This document shows, piece by piece, positions 7,662-21,652 of a stretch of DNA of 64,000 bases. How positions within the stretch are numbered: position 1 is the stretch's first letter; each line of letters begins with the position of its first letter. The notes under the pieces were generated by a model. It saw only the letters and a program-made list of their open reading frames with translations. It was not told where the DNA came from and made no database searches. Source of the DNA: a virus (taxonomy: Duplodnaviria > Caudoviricetes); the IMG/VR virus record IMGVR_UViG_3300028197_000002; one strand, 5' to 3'. The position numbers were made by a program, and so were the translations under genes.

Positions 7662-8455
7662 TTAATTAGCTTTACAACCTCGTCTACAGAAACATCCCAG
7701 TCTTTTTTTCTTATCACTTTTACTTTTGTATTAAATGGATTCCAATCTTTTTTAAATCGAATATGATTTTTATCATCATACGGATCTCCATACCAAGAAA
7801 CCTGATTGCAACCGCAAAGAGAGGCAAAATGTATTGGTCCACTTGATGGACCAACTATTAAAGTACTAGAAGATAAAACATCTGCGAGTTTTCTTAAAGG
7901 AACTCCTCTTAAATCTTCTCCTCCAATCATAGATGCGCTATTTCTAGTTCCTATTGTGGCTGTTCTTTTATTCTTAAAAAAAGAAGTTAATTCGCTCCAT
8001 TTGGAATCAGACCAATTGCGATAACCGGTTTTATTTTTATTGGTTTTTCGACCATGCCAAACAATGTCATATCCTTTTGTTTTGTTGCCATATTTAAAAT
8101 ATTTTTGATTTTTAAAATTATTAAATAGTGGCTTCTGGTCCAAAACATGCCTATGGTCGTATCGAAGAACAGGTTTGTTTGGCGATATCCATTTATCATT
8201 TCTAAGACGACATTTAAATATCTCTTCAAAGGAAGGAATTTTGTAATCCTTACAATTCCACATGTCTGTTTCTTCACAAAGAATATCTAAAGAAAATATA
8301 TCGTCAGCAAAGTCTTCATAAAGAACTTCATGTCCAGATCTACAAGCAACAACTACTTTTTTATAATTGTTCTTTAAATATCTAATGTGCGCTTGCCAAC
8401 AGAAAAGTTCCCATCCAAATTCTCCGACCCAAGGCCCAGCATATAAAGTGCTCAT
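7658..8455 (-). CDS. glycosyltransferase, GT9/heptosyltransferase-like
   Basis: GPWVGEFGWEL N-terminus; LIVGPSSGPIHFASLCG C-terminal GT-B motif. Confidence 0.7.
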   Translation of the reverse strand: MSTLYAGPWVGEFGWELFCWQAHIRYLKNNYKKVVVACRSGHEVLYEDFADDIFSLDILCEETDMWNCKDYKIPSFEEIFKCRLRNDKWISPNKPVLRYDHRHVLDQKPLFNNFKNQKYFKYGNKTKGYDIVWHGRKTNKNKTGYRNWSDSKWSELTSFFKNKRTATIGTRNSASMIGGEDLRGVPLRKLADVLSSSTLIVGPSSGPIHFASLCGCNQVSWYGDPYDDKNHIRFKKDWNPFNTKVKVIRKKDWDVSVDEVVKLIN

Positions 8456-8459
8456 AAAT

Positions 8460-9191
8460 TCACTTTAAAATTCTAGTCAGTTGTGCTTGGCCCCATTTGG
8501 CATCCGTATTTGCAATATATTTTTTTTCAGAGGCGCAATCTATCGTTAAGTTTTCACTTACTTTTTTTGTAAATGTAGGATTTTTCAATTGACAGTTTTT
8601 TGTTCTAGTGTCATTTCCATGGCCTATGCACATTGTATATTTTGGATCTACAATTCTTAACTCCAATTCATTATGCATTCTGCATCTGAATTGAAAGTTT
8701 GTGTCTTCCATACTCCAACCAAGATTTATGGCCTCGTCATATCCATTAACAGAATAAAAATGTTCTTTTTTACAAGTTATCATTCCGCAAGTCCCAAGGT
8801 TGCCTCTATAGTCAGATTCAGAAGCCGCCAATATTATTCCTTTAGGCTCTTGAAATGTAGTAGCAGTAATTTCACAAAAGTTGGGAACTAAAATATTGTC
8901 ACAATCTAAATTGCACAATAAATCTCCATCCGCTTGTTTGTGCGCTATGTTTTTGGCATGAGCAGCAACCCACCATTTAGCTTCAATAGTTTTATAATAC
9001 TTAACAAGGCCAGAGTCTAAATGCTCCTGTAGATTGTCTCTTACCCAAGAATCCATAGAATCCTTGCTATTGTAATTCAAAAGCACAAACTCTCTGTTTT
9101 TATAACTACTTGAGTTTTCAATGCTCTTTAAATATGTTTCTTTTAAATGAAACAAACGATCCATACATGTTGTGCAAAATGATATCTTCAT
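8460..9191 (-). CDS. glycosyltransferase family 2 (GT-A)
   Basis: KISFCTTCMDRL, NLDCD (DxD), VNGYDEAINLGWSMED; start reassigned to MKISF at 9191. Confidence 0.8.
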   Translation of the reverse strand: MKISFCTTCMDRLFHLKETYLKSIENSSSYKNREFVLLNYNSKDSMDSWVRDNLQEHLDSGLVKYYKTIEAKWWVAAHAKNIAHKQADGDLLCNLDCDNILVPNFCEITATTFQEPKGIILAASESDYRGNLGTCGMITCKKEHFYSVNGYDEAINLGWSMEDTNFQFRCRMHNELELRIVDPKYTMCIGHGNDTRTKNCQLKNPTFTKKVSENLTIDCASEKKYIANTDAKWGQAQLTRILK

Positions 9192-10432: not shown

Positions 10433-10489
10433 AACTATAATAAGTATAGTAACTAAGTATATAAATGAATAATCAAATGAGGTATTTAA

Positions 10490-13003
10490 ATGGCTTGGTG
10501 GGATTTCTACAAAATTTGGACTTATGAATTTGAAAAAGGACCTTTAGAGTTATCTAAAATTTCCAAAGATTCTCAAATAACCGGCGCAGGAGTAACTGTT
10601 CCTGATGCCATGCCGGATTTGCGGGGAGAATTATGGAGTGGAGGAGCTAAAGGCCAAGTTCGACTTCATGACAGTAATGACTTTATTGATCTTTCTACTG
10701 TTACAAATAGACAGTCCAGATATAACGAATACGAAAGATTAAGAAACATACCAGAAATAGAAATGGCTATGACCACTATTTCTGATGAAGCTTGCGTTGC
10801 TGGAGATACTAAAATCTCCACTCTATTCGAAGGATACGTTCCGATAGAAAAGTTAGCAGCACGATGGAAAAAAGATCCAAGTCCTTTTCTTGTTTATTGC
10901 TGGGACTTTGAAAAACAAGACTACACTTTAGGTTGGGCTTATGATCCTAGATTTGTAAAAAGAGAAAAAACATTAAAAATAAAATTAGATGATGGAAGTC
11001 ATTTCATAGTCACAGCTGACCATAGGATTCTTGATGCAGATCAGAATTGGATTAACGCTGGAGATTTGAAAGAAGGCGGGGAGATTATGCCTTTTTATAA
11101 AATTAATCCTAATAGGTCTTTAAATAAAATTATTCATAACCAATTTCCAAGGATTTATACGAAAAATGGATGGAAAAATGAAAGACAATTCATAGAAGAT
11201 TGGAAATCTAATGGGTCTAATGAAAAACAAAAAGAAGTTCAGAAAGCCATAAGACTTTTGTCAAGTGGAGCTAGCACAAGACAAACAGCAGACATGATGG
11301 GGAGAAGCTGGCCTACGTTAGATTCTTGGATTAAAAAAGAAGGATTTACTACCAAAGAATTAAAATGGCTAGGAGAAAAAAGAAAACAAAGGAAAATTAT
11401 AGGCATTCAAGAATATAACGAAATGAATGTTTATGATCTTTCTGTAAAGAATCACAAAAATTTCTGTACCGACTCAACAATCATGCATAATTGCCAAAGA
11501 GACGATTATAATAATGTTTTGGAAATAGAGTGCGGCAACGAAGAAGTTAAAAAAGAGCTTGAGTTTTTATGTTTTAATAGAAAAATGTTGAACATAAATA
11601 GAAAAGCTTGGTCTATGGTTAAAAGACTTTGCATTTTTGGAGATGGTTTCTATGAACTAATAACAAATCCAGAAAGCCCAAAAGACGGCGTTTTAAAAAT
11701 GCAAGAGCTTCCTCCTGACTCTATGTATAAAATCGTCACTACAAAAGGAAAATTAGTAGAATTTCAACAATCTAAAGAAGGACCTGATTATCAATCCTTA
11801 ACAAGAGGCACTATAACAAAAGCTACAGATTTAGAATTAATGCAATCTACTGCCATAAGATTTAGTCCTCATCAAGTGGTTCATATGTATTTGGGCGAAG
11901 ATAGGAAAACTTTTTATCCATATGGTCAGTCATTGGTTGAACCTGCCCGAGGGCCAGCCCATCAGTTAAGATTAATGGAAGATGCAATGGTGGTTTACAG
12001 ATTAAGTAGAGCACCAGAAAGAAGAGTTTTTTACATTGATGTTGGACAACTTCCTCCATTTAAAGCAGAGGCTTTTGTGGAAAGAATGAAAGATCAATTC
12101 CGAAAAAAGAAGACGGGCCGTCAAGGAGGTCCGAACAACGCCAATGTTGTTGAGGAAAGATGGTCAGCACCAGCAGCAGATGAAGATTATTGGTTGCCTA
12201 TTCGACCTCAAGCTAATACAAGAATAGAAACATTACCGGGAGCGCAAAATCTAGGAGAAATAGATGACGCCCTGTATTTCAGAAACAAGCTTTTTACTGC
12301 GCTTAACTTTCCTAAAAATTACATAAACACAGAAGATCCTAATCAAACAAGAATAACTCTTTCTGCTCAAGATGCTAGATTCGCAAGAATGGTAGAAAGA
12401 ATTCAATCAAGTATAGAAGATGGAATTCTTCAGATATGTGAAACCCATTTAGAGATGAGAGGATTTCCATTTGATCAGTATGAAAATTTAAAAATTAAAA
12501 TGACTCCGCCAAGTGCTTGGAAAGAACTAAGTGAAGCGGAAATTCAAAATAATAGAATAAACGTAGTAACACAATTAAAAAGCTCTTTGATAATGTCAGA
12601 CTACGATTTATTAACTAAATTCATGAAATATACTGAATCTGAGGCTGAAGGTATTATATCTCGCAATAAAATACAAAAATTGGAAGATCTAAAAATTCAA
12701 GTTGTTGGACAAAATCCTCAATTATTAGGAGTAGGCACTCCGGGAAATAATGAAGAAGGAACAGAGATAGGAGTTAATGCAGAAGGTCCAAATCCGATGC
12801 TCGGAATAGATGGAGAAAATCAAGAATCTGGACAAGAAGGAACTCCAAATTTAGAAGATATGTCTGATCAGGGGTCAGATGCTAAATCTAATGTTGAGCT
12901 AGAATCTCCCTCAGATGAAGAAATTAAAAAATATGATTTGGGAATAGAAAATTATAATAAAACAGTTGATGATGAAGTAATTGACTGGAGCGAGGAGGAA
13001 TAA
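10490..13003 (+). CDS. gp20: portal protein (T4 gp20-like) interrupted by an intein
   Basis: YRLSRAPERRVFYIDVGQLP, EDYWLP, LPGAQNLGEIDDALYFRNKLFTALNFP. Confidence 0.95.
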   Translation: MAWWDFYKIWTYEFEKGPLELSKISKDSQITGAGVTVPDAMPDLRGELWSGGAKGQVRLHDSNDFIDLSTVTNRQSRYNEYERLRNIPEIEMAMTTISDEACVAGDTKISTLFEGYVPIEKLAARWKKDPSPFLVYCWDFEKQDYTLGWAYDPRFVKREKTLKIKLDDGSHFIVTADHRILDADQNWINAGDLKEGGEIMPFYKINPNRSLNKIIHNQFPRIYTKNGWKNERQFIEDWKSNGSNEKQKEVQKAIRLLSSGASTRQTADMMGRSWPTLDSWIKKEGFTTKELKWLGEKRKQRKIIGIQEYNEMNVYDLSVKNHKNFCTDSTIMHNCQRDDYNNVLEIECGNEEVKKELEFLCFNRKMLNINRKAWSMVKRLCIFGDGFYELITNPESPKDGVLKMQELPPDSMYKIVTTKGKLVEFQQSKEGPDYQSLTRGTITKATDLELMQSTAIRFSPHQVVHMYLGEDRKTFYPYGQSLVEPARGPAHQLRLMEDAMVVYRLSRAPERRVFYIDVGQLPPFKAEAFVERMKDQFRKKKTGRQGGPNNANVVEERWSAPAADEDYWLPIRPQANTRIETLPGAQNLGEIDDALYFRNKLFTALNFPKNYINTEDPNQTRITLSAQDARFARMVERIQSSIEDGILQICETHLEMRGFPFDQYENLKIKMTPPSAWKELSEAEIQNNRINVVTQLKSSLIMSDYDLLTKFMKYTESEAEGIISRNKIQKLEDLKIQVVGQNPQLLGVGTPGNNEEGTEIGVNAEGPNPMLGIDGENQESGQEGTPNLEDMSDQGSDAKSNVELESPSDEEIKKYDLGIENYNKTVDDEVIDWSEEE
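10793..11491 (+). mobile_element. 233 aa class-1 intein in the portal (aa 102-334)
   Basis: Block A CVAGDTKI, block B VTADHRIL, block F VYDLSVKNHKNF, block G HN followed by Cys+1; spliced extein reads ISDEA-CQRDD. Confidence 0.92.
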
Positions 13004-13054: not shown

Positions 13055-13091
13055 AATGATTAGTAATTGTCGAACAATTACTTGAATCATT
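13055..13091 (+). promoter_or_regulatory. 16-bp bulged hairpin in the leader of the head-gene operon
   Basis: aatgatt-agtaattgt / acaattact-(tg)-aatcatt, upstream of SD AGGAG. Confidence 0.5.
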
Positions 13092-13126
13092 TATTAATAA
13101 ATGAATAAATTAGGAGCATTATACCT

Positions 13127-18279: not shown

Positions 18280-19464
18280 TTAATTTTTCCAACCATTTTC
18301 TAGTATTCTCATAGCATTAGAATACATTATTTTGTTTATAGTAGAATTGTGATATCCCATGCCTTCTAGGTATCTAACTATCCAAGGAAGATCTTCAACA
18401 TATGCTATTTCATCTGGAGGATCTGTAAATCCGTCAAAATCCGTACCTATAGCTGGAACTTCTTCTCCAGCAACATTTATTATATGATTTAAGGTTGATT
18501 CTACGTGATGAAGTCCTGACCCTTCTGGCTTGTGGGGAGAAAGCCAGTAATTCATAAATATAACACCTACAGTGCATTTTCTTTTAGCAAACCATTTAAG
18601 CTCATCATCAGATAAATTATACGGAAGTCTATGAAGTGCTTGTACGCCTACATGAGAAGCTATTACAGAGCAGTCTTTGTCGTAATCATCAACTATATTG
18701 TAAACATCTTGTCGGCCTTTAGGAGTTAAATGAGAAACATCTATTATCATTCCTATTTCTAGCATCTGCTTTGCTATTCGTTTTCCTAACTCTGTTAGTC
18801 CATATCTTTCATCCCAAGTTCTTCTTAAACTTACATAATTTTTAATTGTTTTTCTTTCTGGTTCTGGGTATGGGAAAACGCAAGATTTAGTTAATGGATT
18901 ATTATAAAAATGAGCGAGAGTAAGATAAGCACAACCTTTTTCACTTAGTTTATTCAAACATTCTGTAATCGAATATTCTGAGGATACTAGTGAATGACCT
19001 CCCTCGACAGAATGCACAACAGAAGAAATTCCTTTTTCTTGATTTTCAAACAACTCAATAGGATTTCTAGCTATTTTAATTCCAACTTCTTTTGAAATTT
19101 CTTTTTCTAAAAAATCCATCATTCCAATGCAAGCTTCATAAGGACTTGGATTCAATATTCTCTTTCTAAATAAAGGAGAAAATTTAGAAAGAAATTTTAT
19201 AAGTGGAACATCATTTAGCCATTCTTTTTCTAAAACATAAGTTGTAGCAAGAGTTACATTGATATTATCTCTGAGCAAAGGAATTGTACTTCTTTGACTT
19301 AAAGGCCAAAAACTATCTCTAAATAATTTTCCTAAAAACTTTCTTTTACTCAATGTTCTTTCAAGCATATATCCTTTTAAATGAACATGATTATGCAAGT
19401 CTACAATCTTTACTGGGAAATCGCTTGCAATGTGTCTGTCTGTCTTAAGCATATTACTAATCAT
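18280..19464 (-). CDS. membrane dipeptidase (M19 family, amidohydrolase fold)
   Basis: VDLHNH, SVEGGH, YLTLAH, GMIIDVSH, IASHVG, NLSDDEL, AIGTDFDG. Confidence 0.9.
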   Translation of the reverse strand: MISNMLKTDRHIASDFPVKIVDLHNHVHLKGYMLERTLSKRKFLGKLFRDSFWPLSQRSTIPLLRDNINVTLATTYVLEKEWLNDVPLIKFLSKFSPLFRKRILNPSPYEACIGMMDFLEKEISKEVGIKIARNPIELFENQEKGISSVVHSVEGGHSLVSSEYSITECLNKLSEKGCAYLTLAHFYNNPLTKSCVFPYPEPERKTIKNYVSLRRTWDERYGLTELGKRIAKQMLEIGMIIDVSHLTPKGRQDVYNIVDDYDKDCSVIASHVGVQALHRLPYNLSDDELKWFAKRKCTVGVIFMNYWLSPHKPEGSGLHHVESTLNHIINVAGEEVPAIGTDFDGFTDPPDEIAYVEDLPWIVRYLEGMGYHNSTINKIMYSNAMRILENGWKN

Positions 19465-19525
19465 ATGTACACTTTCTAAACAGACAACAATAACCTAAGT
19501 AATTTAAAATGTAAAGTTTAAAAAT

Positions 19526-19565
19526 AAAAAAAGCCGGTTAACAACATTTCTATTGTTAACCGGCT
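19526..19565 (-). terminator. intrinsic terminator closing the candidate large RNA
   Basis: Perfect 13-bp stem agccggttaacaa (19532-19544) / ttgttaaccggct (19553-19565) with a U-tract on the minus strand. Confidence 0.9.
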
Positions 19566-20543
19566 CTCTTAGGCAGAACTTTCAATTTTCAATCCGCTAA
19601 TCTTTTGGGACAAACGAATCGAGCAAACATAGTCCATCACTGTTATTGTAGTAAATCACGGGTACGTTTCTGCCGTTGTGCTTTTAAACACACCCTTGGC
19701 TTATTTTGCCAACCCATGAGTGATAGTCGTAGTCTTTTAGCAACTCACTTTTCCTTAGCACTAATCAATTTCTTGCAGAATACTTGCCTGTTACCAGCAG
19801 CCCCTTCTGCGATTCTTTTCATAGTGATCCAAATTAATTTACTCCTAAAATTTACCACAACTTTCCTGTTATTATCGTGTTCAGGCAGACACGTCGTTTC
19901 TAAGATCTTTTTTGCGATGTTTACACATCTGATCTAGGCTCAACATCATTATTCACTACCGCCGTAGTTGCTCTGCACAAGGCAGAGGGCTTATCGAAAA
20001 CAAACTACTGAGTTTTCGATTTATCCCATGATGCTTATAGGATTGTTCTCAAGTTCTTTTGAGTTACTTTTCTTTCAAAAAATAATGCGTTCTCAAATTT
20101 CTTTAAGTCATTTGCCAGACTTTAATTTTATAACTATTTCTAATTATAAAATTTATAACCTAGCCATCCCATAACCGAAGCTCATCGTAGAGTTCCAAAA
20201 AGACTCTGCTATTATTAAAAACAATTTCGAATGAAGTTATTTTATAATTAGCACATTCTTGCGAATGTACTAGCTTCAAGATTAAGGCACTCTTGCGAAT
20301 GCAAAACCTTTCAGCAATAGTTCGATCCTTTCGTTCTGCTTCTACTAAGAATTTACAAACTTAGCTTTCACAGACCCAGCTCAAATAGGGTTTTGGCTTT
20401 TGTACTTAAAAATCTGCTTTCACAGATAATTAACCAGCCCTACGATTTATTTTTTTCACAAGCATCTTTCGATACTTGCAAGGACTTTTTTCAATTGTCA
20501 AAGATCAATTCAATGAGTTGTTGCTTCCAACGTGTCATTGATG
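19566..20543 (-). ncRNA. candidate giant structured non-coding RNA (~1 kb), family unassigned
   Basis: No minus-strand ORF of 60 aa or more; promoter, leader and terminator bracket it; hairpins capped by GAAA, GCAA, GCAA and GUAA, a 9-bp helix at 19993-20020, and a long-range GGCAGAA/UUCUGCC helix. Confidence 0.75.
20495..20506 (-). promoter_or_regulatory. boxA-like antitermination sequence GAUCUUUGACAA
   Basis: Resembles rrn boxA (GxUCUUUGAAAA/UGCUCUUUAACA) and directly follows a 5' hairpin. Confidence 0.55.
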
Positions 20544-20549
20544 TTTCCC

Positions 20550-20577
20550 AATATAACGATTGCGTTTCATGTTGCAA
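20550..20577 (-). promoter_or_regulatory. sigma70-like promoter for the candidate RNA
   Basis: TTGCAA (20577-20572), 16 nt spacer, TATATT (20555-20550) on the minus strand. Confidence 0.5.
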
Positions 20578-20806: not shown

Positions 20807-21652
20807 ATGAAAATAATTATATTTTTAATTGCTCTATTCTTTGCAATTTCACCTTGTTTAGCTGGAACTATAGAACCCGGAGTTCCTGATTCAAAATACT
20901 TAAAGTATGGAGAAAAGCACAATTGCGTACTCCCAATAATGGGACATTACGCCGATTCACTAAACAGATCTTTCAAAGGATCATGTGTATTAATTAGTGA
21001 AAATTATATCTTAACTGCTGCTCATGTGGTTTATGGCTCAATGACTCAGTATGTGGTTTATGAAGGGAAAGCCTATCCACTAAGCATTGTCGCTGTTCAT
21101 GCAGGGTTTGATCCAAAAAAAATGGGAACAAATGATATCGCAATAGGAAGACTGCAAAGGCCAATAAAATTAGATTTTTATCCAGAAATTTATAATAAAA
21201 AAGACGAGAAAGGCAAAGTGTGCAGTATGGCTGGATATGGAAACACAGGAACTTTTGACACTGGTTGGAAGCCAGAAAAATACGATCATAAAAAAAGAGC
21301 TGGATCTAATATGATTTTTAATATCGAAAAAAATTGCTTGTTGACATCAGTAACCGATCCTTCTGGTACCGATCTTGAATTTCTCATAGCTCCCGGAGAT
21401 TCAGGAGGAGGTTTATTCATTGACCAGAAGCTCGCAGGAATCAATTCAGCGGTAATTGCCGCAGACGGCAACCCAAACAGCGATTATGGCGATTTGGGCT
21501 GTCACACGCGTGTCAGTGACTATGTGGAGTGGATCTCAAAAACCCAAGAATTAATTGAAGTTCTTATTGATCTAGAGGAAAAACAAAAAGAAAAGAAGGA
21601 TGAGTTGCCGGAACTACTAAAAAAAGCAATTCGATCTAGAAAAGAAAGTTAA
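20807..21652 (+). CDS. secreted trypsin-like (S1) serine protease
   Basis: Signal peptide; catalytic triad LTAAHV, NDIAI, GDSGGG; SD GGAGG. Confidence 0.92.
   Translation: MKIIIFLIALFFAISPCLAGTIEPGVPDSKYLKYGEKHNCVLPIMGHYADSLNRSFKGSCVLISENYILTAAHVVYGSMTQYVVYEGKAYPLSIVAVHAGFDPKKMGTNDIAIGRLQRPIKLDFYPEIYNKKDEKGKVCSMAGYGNTGTFDTGWKPEKYDHKKRAGSNMIFNIEKNCLLTSVTDPSGTDLEFLIAPGDSGGGLFIDQKLAGINSAVIAADGNPNSDYGDLGCHTRVSDYVEWISKTQELIEVLIDLEEKQKEKKDELPELLKKAIRSRKES

Follow-up and report, generated by a model that had tools for sequence, protein, structure and literature searches.

The minus strand of a 64-kilobase (kb) stretch of viral DNA (IMG/VR record IMGVR_UViG_3300028197_000002, referred to here as the window) carries between positions 19524 and 20543 an element of about 1,017 nucleotides (nt), measured from the predicted start through the last residue of the terminator U-tract, that we read, with a confidence of roughly 0.8, as a stand-alone gene whose product, a structured non-coding RNA of very large size, founds a new family. 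Comparison of its relatives shows that ca. 29 helices and at least two pseudoknots are kept by compensatory mutations, and a discrete RNA species of about 1 kb accumulates in many environmental RNA samples in which the neighbouring phage genes are barely detected. Among the few large ornate phage RNAs, this one forms a new family, set apart by a ribosomal RNA (rRNA)-type antitermination leader that is coupled to the helix closing its core. To our knowledge, only a handful of very large ornate RNAs are known from bacteria and phages (GOLLD, ROOL, OLE, raiA and HEARO); each of them opened structural or functional work, and some were recently found to form RNA-only cages. The family described here is longer than all five and its covariation is unusually strong. 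A preliminary description, made from the sequence of the window, had proposed a structured non-coding RNA of about 1 kb with its own promoter and terminator, which is supported by signal scans, covariation and transcript data; the checks it had suggested (a search of Rfam, covariation among relatives, folding energy against shuffled controls and a transcript) all gave results in line with that proposal, as detailed below.

Non-coding character, relatives and covariation

Between positions 19465 and 20806 no credible coding sequence is present, the longest open reading frame (ORF) being of 110 amino acids (aa) and located on the plus strand, which bears out the earlier claim of a gap of ca. 1.3 kb in the coding capacity. 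Reassigning stop codons, singly or in pairs, yields no long frame on the strand of the promoter and terminator. Short ORFs of 25–39 aa do exist on the sense strand and might be taken for hidden small peptide genes, but no ORF is conserved between relatives, short ORFs never fall at the same alignment columns in different lineages, and indel lengths between relatives are not multiples of three.

Relatives were gathered through capsid-guided loci and IUPAC pattern scans and confirmed by nhmmer (E values down to 0), yielding about ten independent ones, all on huge-phage (viral) or metagenome contigs, plus a further one that is far more diverged and GC-rich (L142, on a 343-kb contig). Patterns based on GAAACGACGTGT... 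and on boxA/GTCCTTGC gave mostly chance matches that nhmmer rejected, and the sole addition from a relaxed pattern, L144, turned out to be a false positive in a coding region. The relatives measure 880–920 nt, and the ca. 100 nt by which the window copy exceeds them are inserted hairpins, which include the two GCAA hairpins together with both repeated motifs and are absent from all other full-length relatives (L137, the only close relative of the window copy, is cut off 5' of the insertion region). The pattern scan, run over 185,579 species of bacteria and archaea with a single genome each, gave no match, nor did a BLAST comparison of the RNA with 50,697 records of cultured phages; a core-domain model finds nothing in phiEco32, in which no homology is seen. 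To date, all members of the family come from huge T4-like phages of marine or fresh waters, which are still uncultured and whose biology is largely obscure.

Even within this clade the distribution is patchy, since phages whose capsids are 75–88% identical to that of the window lack a detectable copy in the sequence at hand (LR756511.1 and IMG/VR contigs G004–G009 among them), whereas the diverged L142 has one. LR756511.1 (an uncultured phage of 595 kb) is the nearest complete named genome, with a capsid identity of 75%; the RNA was not found there by BLAST, by the core-domain model or by a pattern search with up to 3 mismatches, and the only match, of 15 bits, was judged spurious, given that it lies inside a coding-like region and has broken stems. 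Four other large related contigs, 22–46% complete, were also negative.

The fold of the sense (minus) strand is much more stable than expected by chance, with a minimum free energy of -297.6 kcal/mol vs. -228.6 +/- 7.1 kcal/mol for 60 dinucleotide shuffles (z = -9.8); the corresponding z for the antisense (plus) strand is -3.9. RNAalifold applied to 13 sequences yields 182 pairs, 122 of which show compensatory double changes. An L-INS-i alignment of 14 sequences displays 228 consensus pairs, for which 88.7% of the cells are canonical over nine lineages, vs. 36–44% when the partners are slid, and double changes are found in 157 of these pairs (53–66 in the slid controls, with a maximum of 100 in shuffles). 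For the most conserved domain (160 nt, alignment A5) 94.5% of the cells are paired and 26 out of 41 pairs are doubly changed, and none of 500 shuffles reaches any of these measures. G-U and U-G cells outnumber A-C and C-A mismatches by 354 to 62, hence the minus strand is the RNA strand, as the preliminary description had assigned it.

Conservation runs along the whole molecule. Over eight diverged lineages 172 alignment columns are invariant, many of them located in junctions and loops and not in helices. Five apical loops, GNRA-type or similar, are conserved, and since the terminator hairpin supplies one of them, the terminator should be considered part of the fold. With the many diverged sequences now assembled, a covariance model could be built, targets for cryo-electron microscopy chosen and further members sought.

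Concerning expression, 17 metatranscriptome runs from about 15 marine or estuarine studies contain at least 91% of the sampled words of the RNA, while the major capsid gene reaches at least 90% in only one RNA run. When six RNA runs from six studies were compared with a 10-kb stretch around the element, each one showed a single contig of 951–974 nt that extends from 19560–19584 to 20515–20534, with flanks that are empty or hold short, low-depth fragments of 150–200 nt; such lack of cover is by itself no evidence that the flanking genes are silent. Two DNA runs, instead, cover the whole 10 kb evenly, so DNA carry-over cannot explain the RNA signal. The contigs begin about 10 nt inside the predicted start and in five of the six runs stop at 19560–19567, the foot of the terminator stem, ending there without running into the downstream peptidase gene. 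The abundance of the RNA in natural marine communities points to ecological relevance.

Architecture, leader and biogenesis

The consensus architecture comprises 29 helices, whose coordinates are given here on the minus strand of the window. Helix H1 (AGUCC at 20486–20482 with GGACU at 19635–19631) has 5 base pairs (bp) and is canonical in all of its 55 cells (100%). It encloses a core of about 850 nt that is built of several multi-helix domains, and it is doubly compensated in one lineage (L135, GAUCC/GGAUC, two positions changed on both sides). Within it, hairpin H2 (20457–20480) displays a conserved GAAA-type loop and 10 pairs, 7 of them doubly changed, with 94% canonical cells. The domain closed by H3 (20184–20446; H3 itself at 20446–20438 and 20192–20184, with 9 pairs of which 7 are doubly changed) harbors H4 to H7, together with the window-specific GCAA hairpins at 20302–20287 and 20272–20249 and the repeated UCUGUGAAAGC motif. 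The central domain (19936–20183), closed by H8 (20183–20176 with 19942–19936), contains H9 to H19 and shows two invariant loops, A-GAAA-U at 20141–20136 and U-GGCG-A at 19964–19959 (CGGCGG in the window). The helices at 19993–20020 and 19971–19987 belong to this domain, as does the part covered by alignment A5. A conserved TATAAATTT in the middle of the RNA was considered as a T4 late promoter, but is actually the 5' arm of hairpin H11, in which 10 out of 11 pairs are doubly changed.

Downstream of the central domain, the span 19865–19935 comprises H20 (19935–19903), whose variable loop holds a GUAA hairpin, and hairpin H21 (19895–19874), whose loop CCUG (19885–19882) pairs with CAGG (19868–19865) in an H-type pseudoknot that is 98% canonical and has all four pairs doubly changed. 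It is followed by a long arm (19726–19861) in which H22 (17 of 22 pairs doubly changed) carries H23 (12 of 15), the latter ending in a conserved GUAA tetraloop (GGUAAC, 19795–19790). The last domain of the core (19636–19724) is closed by H25 (19724–19720 with 19640–19636), holds H26 and H27, and is tied to the central domain by a long-range pseudoknot between UUAC (19654–19651) and the H17 loop GUAG (20008–20005), 96% canonical and with two of its four pairs doubly changed. The 3' tail (19572–19622) consists of hairpin H28 (19622–19589; 6 of 11 pairs doubly changed) and the strand UUCUGCC (19578–19572), which reaches back into the H25 domain to pair with GGCAGAA (19674–19668; 89% canonical, 4 of 7 pairs doubly changed). 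The terminator scan places an intrinsic terminator at 19524–19567, with a 17-bp stem (19567–19551 with 19546–19530) followed by the U-tract; its stem is 97% canonical with 12 of 17 pairs doubly changed, and its loop is a near-invariant A-GAAA-U (UGAAAU in one of eight lineages). Inspection by eye revealed no hairpin loop that changes from one palindrome to another as the kissing loops of GOLLD and OLE do.

All the hairpins listed in the preliminary description are present in the window at the coordinates it gave for the minus strand. Its hairpin with GAAA loop at 20459–20478 is H2, the GCAA hairpins at 20287–20302 and 20249–20272 and both repeated motifs are present, the helices at 19993–20020 and 19971–19987 show double changes in 6 of 8 and 3 of 5 pairs, respectively, and the long-range GGCAGAA/UUCUGCC helix is the one that anchors the tail. 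The GUAA hairpin at 19916–19929 belongs to a variable loop and is shared by only some lineages. The terminator has a stem of 17 bp (19567–19530) and not the 13 bp first reported.

At the 5' end, the promoter scan identifies a sigma70-type promoter at 20577–20550, with a -35 hexamer TTGCAA (20577–20572), a 16-nt spacer and a -10 hexamer TATATT (20555–20550), which puts the start at about 20543. The hexamers keep their position in the relatives (TTGCGA/TATACT, TTGTAA/TACAAT, TTGACA/TAAAAG), with spacers that vary. The transcript would open with a leader hairpin (20541–20510, obtained by folding) at the position that boxB occupies in rRNA (rrn) operons, built of UCAAUGA and UCAUUGA around GUUG-GAAG-CAAC. 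As read from the alignments, every relative has a hairpin at the same site, whose stem sequences differ in a covarying manner and whose loop is often GNRA. Next to it, the alignment of relatives reveals a boxA-like element, UGAUCUUUG (20507–20499), followed by the spacer ACAAUU (20498–20493), and UC[U/A]UUGACAA is invariant in all 11 full-length relatives. Promoter, 5' hairpin, boxA with its spacer, and intrinsic terminator are all present in every full-length relative.

The resemblance to the rrn-type boxA is close. The window element at 20507–20493 is near UGCUCUUUA and is followed by an AUU-containing spacer, while in the relative L054 the boxA and spacer, UGCUCUUUGACAAUUUG (UGCUCUUUG-ACAAUUUG), are nearly equal to ugcucuuuaacaauuua of Escherichia coli rrnG (ugcucuuua-acaauuua; PMC2724277). 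The A-to-G difference between these two falls on position 9, which is a G in the boxA of Aquifex rrn and where a purine is tolerated (PMC3177189). The element begins ca. 36 nt past the predicted start, and the 5' strand of H1 starts 12 nt after it, so that the order of promoter, hairpin, boxA with AUU-containing spacer and far-pairing helix strand is the one found in rRNA operon leaders (boxB-boxA-boxC). It should be noted that the boxA core, TCATTGACAA, is matched exactly once more in the window, at 2941–2950 on the minus strand, and that two matches per window are within chance expectation. The likeness to the ribosomal leaders also has its limits: the rRNA leader–trailer helix needs more than 17 bp whereas H1 has 5, an RNase III site is not evident in the phage RNA, what the helix encloses is not rRNA, with no match to small- or large-subunit rRNA models, and the gene is phage-borne.

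For the rRNA leader it has been proposed (PMC10250234) that the NusB-bound boxA retains the leader strand at the polymerase up to the emergence of the trailer. Based on this model and on the shared boxB-boxA-boxC-like order, we infer that the phage RNA is probably produced with the help of Nus-factor antitermination and tethered folding. In this scheme, the host sigma70 RNA polymerase would start at about 20543, and the nascent boxA would recruit NusB and S10 with NusA, NusG and perhaps SuhB, as in rRNA operons. The resulting complex would shield the long untranslated transcript from Rho termination, while the AGUCC strand, tethered near the RNA exit, would be kept available to pair with GGACU some 850 nt later, much like the proposed 16S leader–trailer helix. 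Transcription would then end at the terminator, whose near-invariant loop, as well as the tail upstream of it, appear to be built into the fold. The leader thereby provides a testable idea, namely that phages may recruit the Nus antitermination complex to protect and fold a long untranslated RNA.

Known RNA families, function and rival explanations

The whole window shows no match to Rfam at the gathering score, and neither do the 1.7-kb region of the gene and five relatives at E <=10 with permissive Infernal filters; the families without a match include GOLLD, ROOL, OLE, HEARO, raiA, RNase P, tmRNA, 6S, SRP, group I and II introns and small ribozymes. A literature search found no description of this RNA, nor is such an RNA mentioned in a survey that covers over 8,000 candidate phage RNAs, with motifs of 67 bases on average (PMC10690425). 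Hence, the earlier suggestion of a new member or a new class next to GOLLD and ROOL holds for the new family, while membership of either known one does not.

GOLLD (RF01998) is similar in character: it is longer than 800 nt, ornate, pseudoknotted, phage-borne, known from lake and marine data, strongly expressed in infection and without a known protein partner or function (PMC12286853). The phage RNA differs in that it has no match to the covariance model, is longer (ca. 900–1,017 nt), is conserved throughout while in GOLLD the 3' half is conserved and the 5' half variable, and possesses the rRNA-type boxA leader and the helix that closes the whole core. GOLLD often adjoins tRNA genes of phages or prophages and occurs in Lactobacillales prophages, whereas the present RNA, though equally phage-borne, was found only in huge T4-like phages and has no tRNA gene within its 64 kb of context. 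ROOL (RF03087) is likewise a large, ornate RNA of phages and prophages with multiple pseudoknots and no partner protein, and forms RNA-only cages through kissing loops and A-minor contacts (PMC12286853). It gives no model match either, the present RNA is nearly twice its size, and neither tRNA islands nearby nor a palindromic loop were seen. With OLE (RF01071) the RNA shares the large size, the ornate fold, the high abundance and the many conserved nucleotides; OLE, however, is chromosomal, belongs to extremophilic Firmicutes and acts with Oap proteins at the membrane, while the RNA studied here is phage-borne, and no Rfam match to OLE and no common partner gene in the manner of oapA, oapB or oapC were found in its surroundings.

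Other classes fit no better. The bacterial, archaeal and nuclear RNase P models give no match at E <=10 for the window copy and five relatives. The P4 helix of RNase P is formed by the pairing of CR-I with CR-V; here AAAGUCC pairs with GGACU and not with a CR-V of the type ACAGAA...GGCUUA. The strings AAAGUCC, CUGGUAACAG and GGAGCAA presumably recall E. coli M1 RNA, and their order is unlike that of RNase P. Group I or II introns are disfavored by the lack of a model match, by the element's own promoter and terminator and by its location between genes in all lineages, and tmRNA, 6S and SRP RNAs by the lack of an Rfam match and, for tmRNA, of an ARAGORN prediction.

What the RNA does is the weakest step of the reading. 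It resembles neither an antisense regulator nor a leader or messenger, and we tentatively propose that it might act in trans as an architectural particle, in the way put forward for GOLLD, ROOL and OLE. This particle could consist of RNA only, or it could serve to scaffold or trap a macromolecule of the host or the phage. In a bolder version, which we rate a little short of even odds, the RNA is the founding member of an undescribed class of giant phage RNAs with a biochemical role of its own and uses the host rRNA antitermination complex as a co-transcriptional folding chaperone. Being larger than GOLLD, it would in that case exceed in size every other structured RNA known from bacteria or phages, rRNA excepted; its role could be catalysis, or an RNA-only or RNA–protein megastructure built during infection, with the 850-nt loop closed by the borrowed complex.

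Several points weigh against this account of the gene. The link between boxA and the Nus factors is a match in sequence, and transcription by the host polymerase is likewise inferred. Neither a conserved partner protein nearby nor, by eye, a palindromic kissing loop was found, and the absence of a detectable copy in LR756511.1 means that the RNA is not essential to the whole phage clade. Moreover, the RNA data are assembled contigs, from which strand, exact ends and true abundance are not readable, and an assembly break or processing could explain why the contigs end, on the 3' side, where the terminator stem begins.

The rival explanations differ mainly in what they assume about function. That the RNA serves as a decoy or sponge, soaking up a host factor (a defence sensor, an RNA-binding protein, ribosomal proteins or assembly factors, or the Nus factors) for the phage takeover, is unlikely, although together with a ribozyme it is one of the two live alternatives: the promoter is of the early, host type, the RNA is very abundant relative to the capsid messenger, its rRNA-style leader could compete for NusB and S10, and its patchiness within the phage clade is as often seen for accessory counter-defence genes. 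Precedents exist as well, since OLE was proposed to sequester ribosomal protein RpsU and GOLLD pulls down ribosomes (PMC12286853). Yet the conservation pattern is that of a single large integrated fold and not of a string of binding sites; no repeated short motif of the CsrB or ToxI type was seen (no direct scan for tandem repeats was made), the only repeats being the two pairs within the window-specific insertions, and no target is identifiable computationally. A ribozyme, in which the invariant junction nucleotides form an active site that works on the RNA itself or in trans, for instance in RNase P-like cleavage or processing, appears slightly less probable still. The 172 invariant columns, many of which fall in junctions and loops, speak for it, as does the combination of a long-range closing helix with pseudoknots that large ribozymes also display, but the models of RNase P, introns and small ribozymes remain silent at E <=10 in the window copy and five relatives, the RNase P-like strings are out of order, the window has no tRNA genes, and the full-length contigs of six RNA runs argue against efficient self-cleavage.

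That it is a very diverged member of GOLLD or ROOL, through a homology too old for sequence or structure models to detect, is considerably more improbable. The common setting speaks for it: like the present RNA, these are carried by phages of lakes and the sea, are of very large size and ornate, have many pseudoknots and GNRA loops, and are strongly expressed without a partner protein (PMC12286853), and GOLLD was first found in lake and marine metagenomes. It is opposed by the permissive Infernal searches, which find no match at E <=10 in six family members, by the lack of tRNA genes nearby, by a conservation that is whole-length and not restricted to the 3' half, and by the boxA-type leader, unmentioned for GOLLD or ROOL in the passages of PMC12286853 that were consulted. 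Finally, the view of the element as a cis-acting leader or trailer that regulates a peptidase gene, or as a cover for the small peptide genes considered above, is largely refuted: the M19 dipeptidase gene does lie on the same strand, 60 nt past the terminator, but the transcript contigs do not extend past the terminator, and the gene that follows in other lineages is an unrelated one, often in convergent orientation.

Genomic setting and neighbouring genes

The source phage is T4-like. In the window, the gp20-type portal protein contains an intein, and a prohead protease of gp21 type and a major capsid protein of gp23 type are encoded as well. Related IMG/VR contigs measure 140–340 kb with completeness ratings of 28–69%, which suggests a genome size near half a megabase. 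Within the 64 kb, ARAGORN detects neither tRNA nor tmRNA genes, and only four sigma70-like pairs of -35 and -10 hexamers occur across the window, one of which is used by the RNA gene.

In every lineage the RNA gene is intergenic, with its own promoter and terminator, and its neighbours differ between all lineages, which supports its description as a stand-alone gene. Among the products of these neighbours are peptidases, beta-propeller proteins, a phosphoesterase and a DnaJ-like protein. No protein is conserved near the gene across the loci of the relatives, and in several lineages the downstream gene converges on the terminator; the RNA is hence not a leader, nor is it linked to a partner protein encoded next to it. 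The location just downstream of the capsid operon, given in the preliminary description, applies to the window phage and L137, while the neighbours in the other lineages are entirely different.

In the window the gene is flanked downstream by the M19 dipeptidase gene (18280–19464, minus strand) and on the other side by a gene for a trypsin-like serine protease (20807–21652, plus strand). Two peptidase genes, one of them a homologue of membrane dipeptidase, are unusual for a phage capsid region, and the M19 dipeptidase is also found 3' of the RNA in L137. In one sub-lineage the RNA gene adjoins a beta-propeller protein with DUF5122 repeats (777–833 aa; L054 14951–17284, L103 3978–6479 and L115 6704–9118), which is absent beside it in the others. 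A gene for a nuclease like TnsA or phage endonuclease I lies directly upstream of the RNA gene in L085 (3329–4060, minus strand) and could bear on the movement of the RNA gene between genome positions. In L138, which is GC-richer, a gene for a DnaJ-like co-chaperone with DnaJ and DnaJ_C domains (8006–8860, plus strand) starts inside the RNA terminator.

Two further observations concern the structural genes of the window. The intein of the gp20 portal gene (10490–13003, plus strand) shows the Pfam domains Intein_splicing and HTH_23, the latter a helix-turn-helix domain, and no homing-endonuclease domain was recognised in it. A motif, ATAAATGAATAA (TATAAATG / TAATAAATG), precedes both the portal gene (ca. 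10440–10470, plus strand) and the next gene, of 580 aa (ca. 13075–13105, plus strand), and resembles the T4 late promoter TATAAATA.

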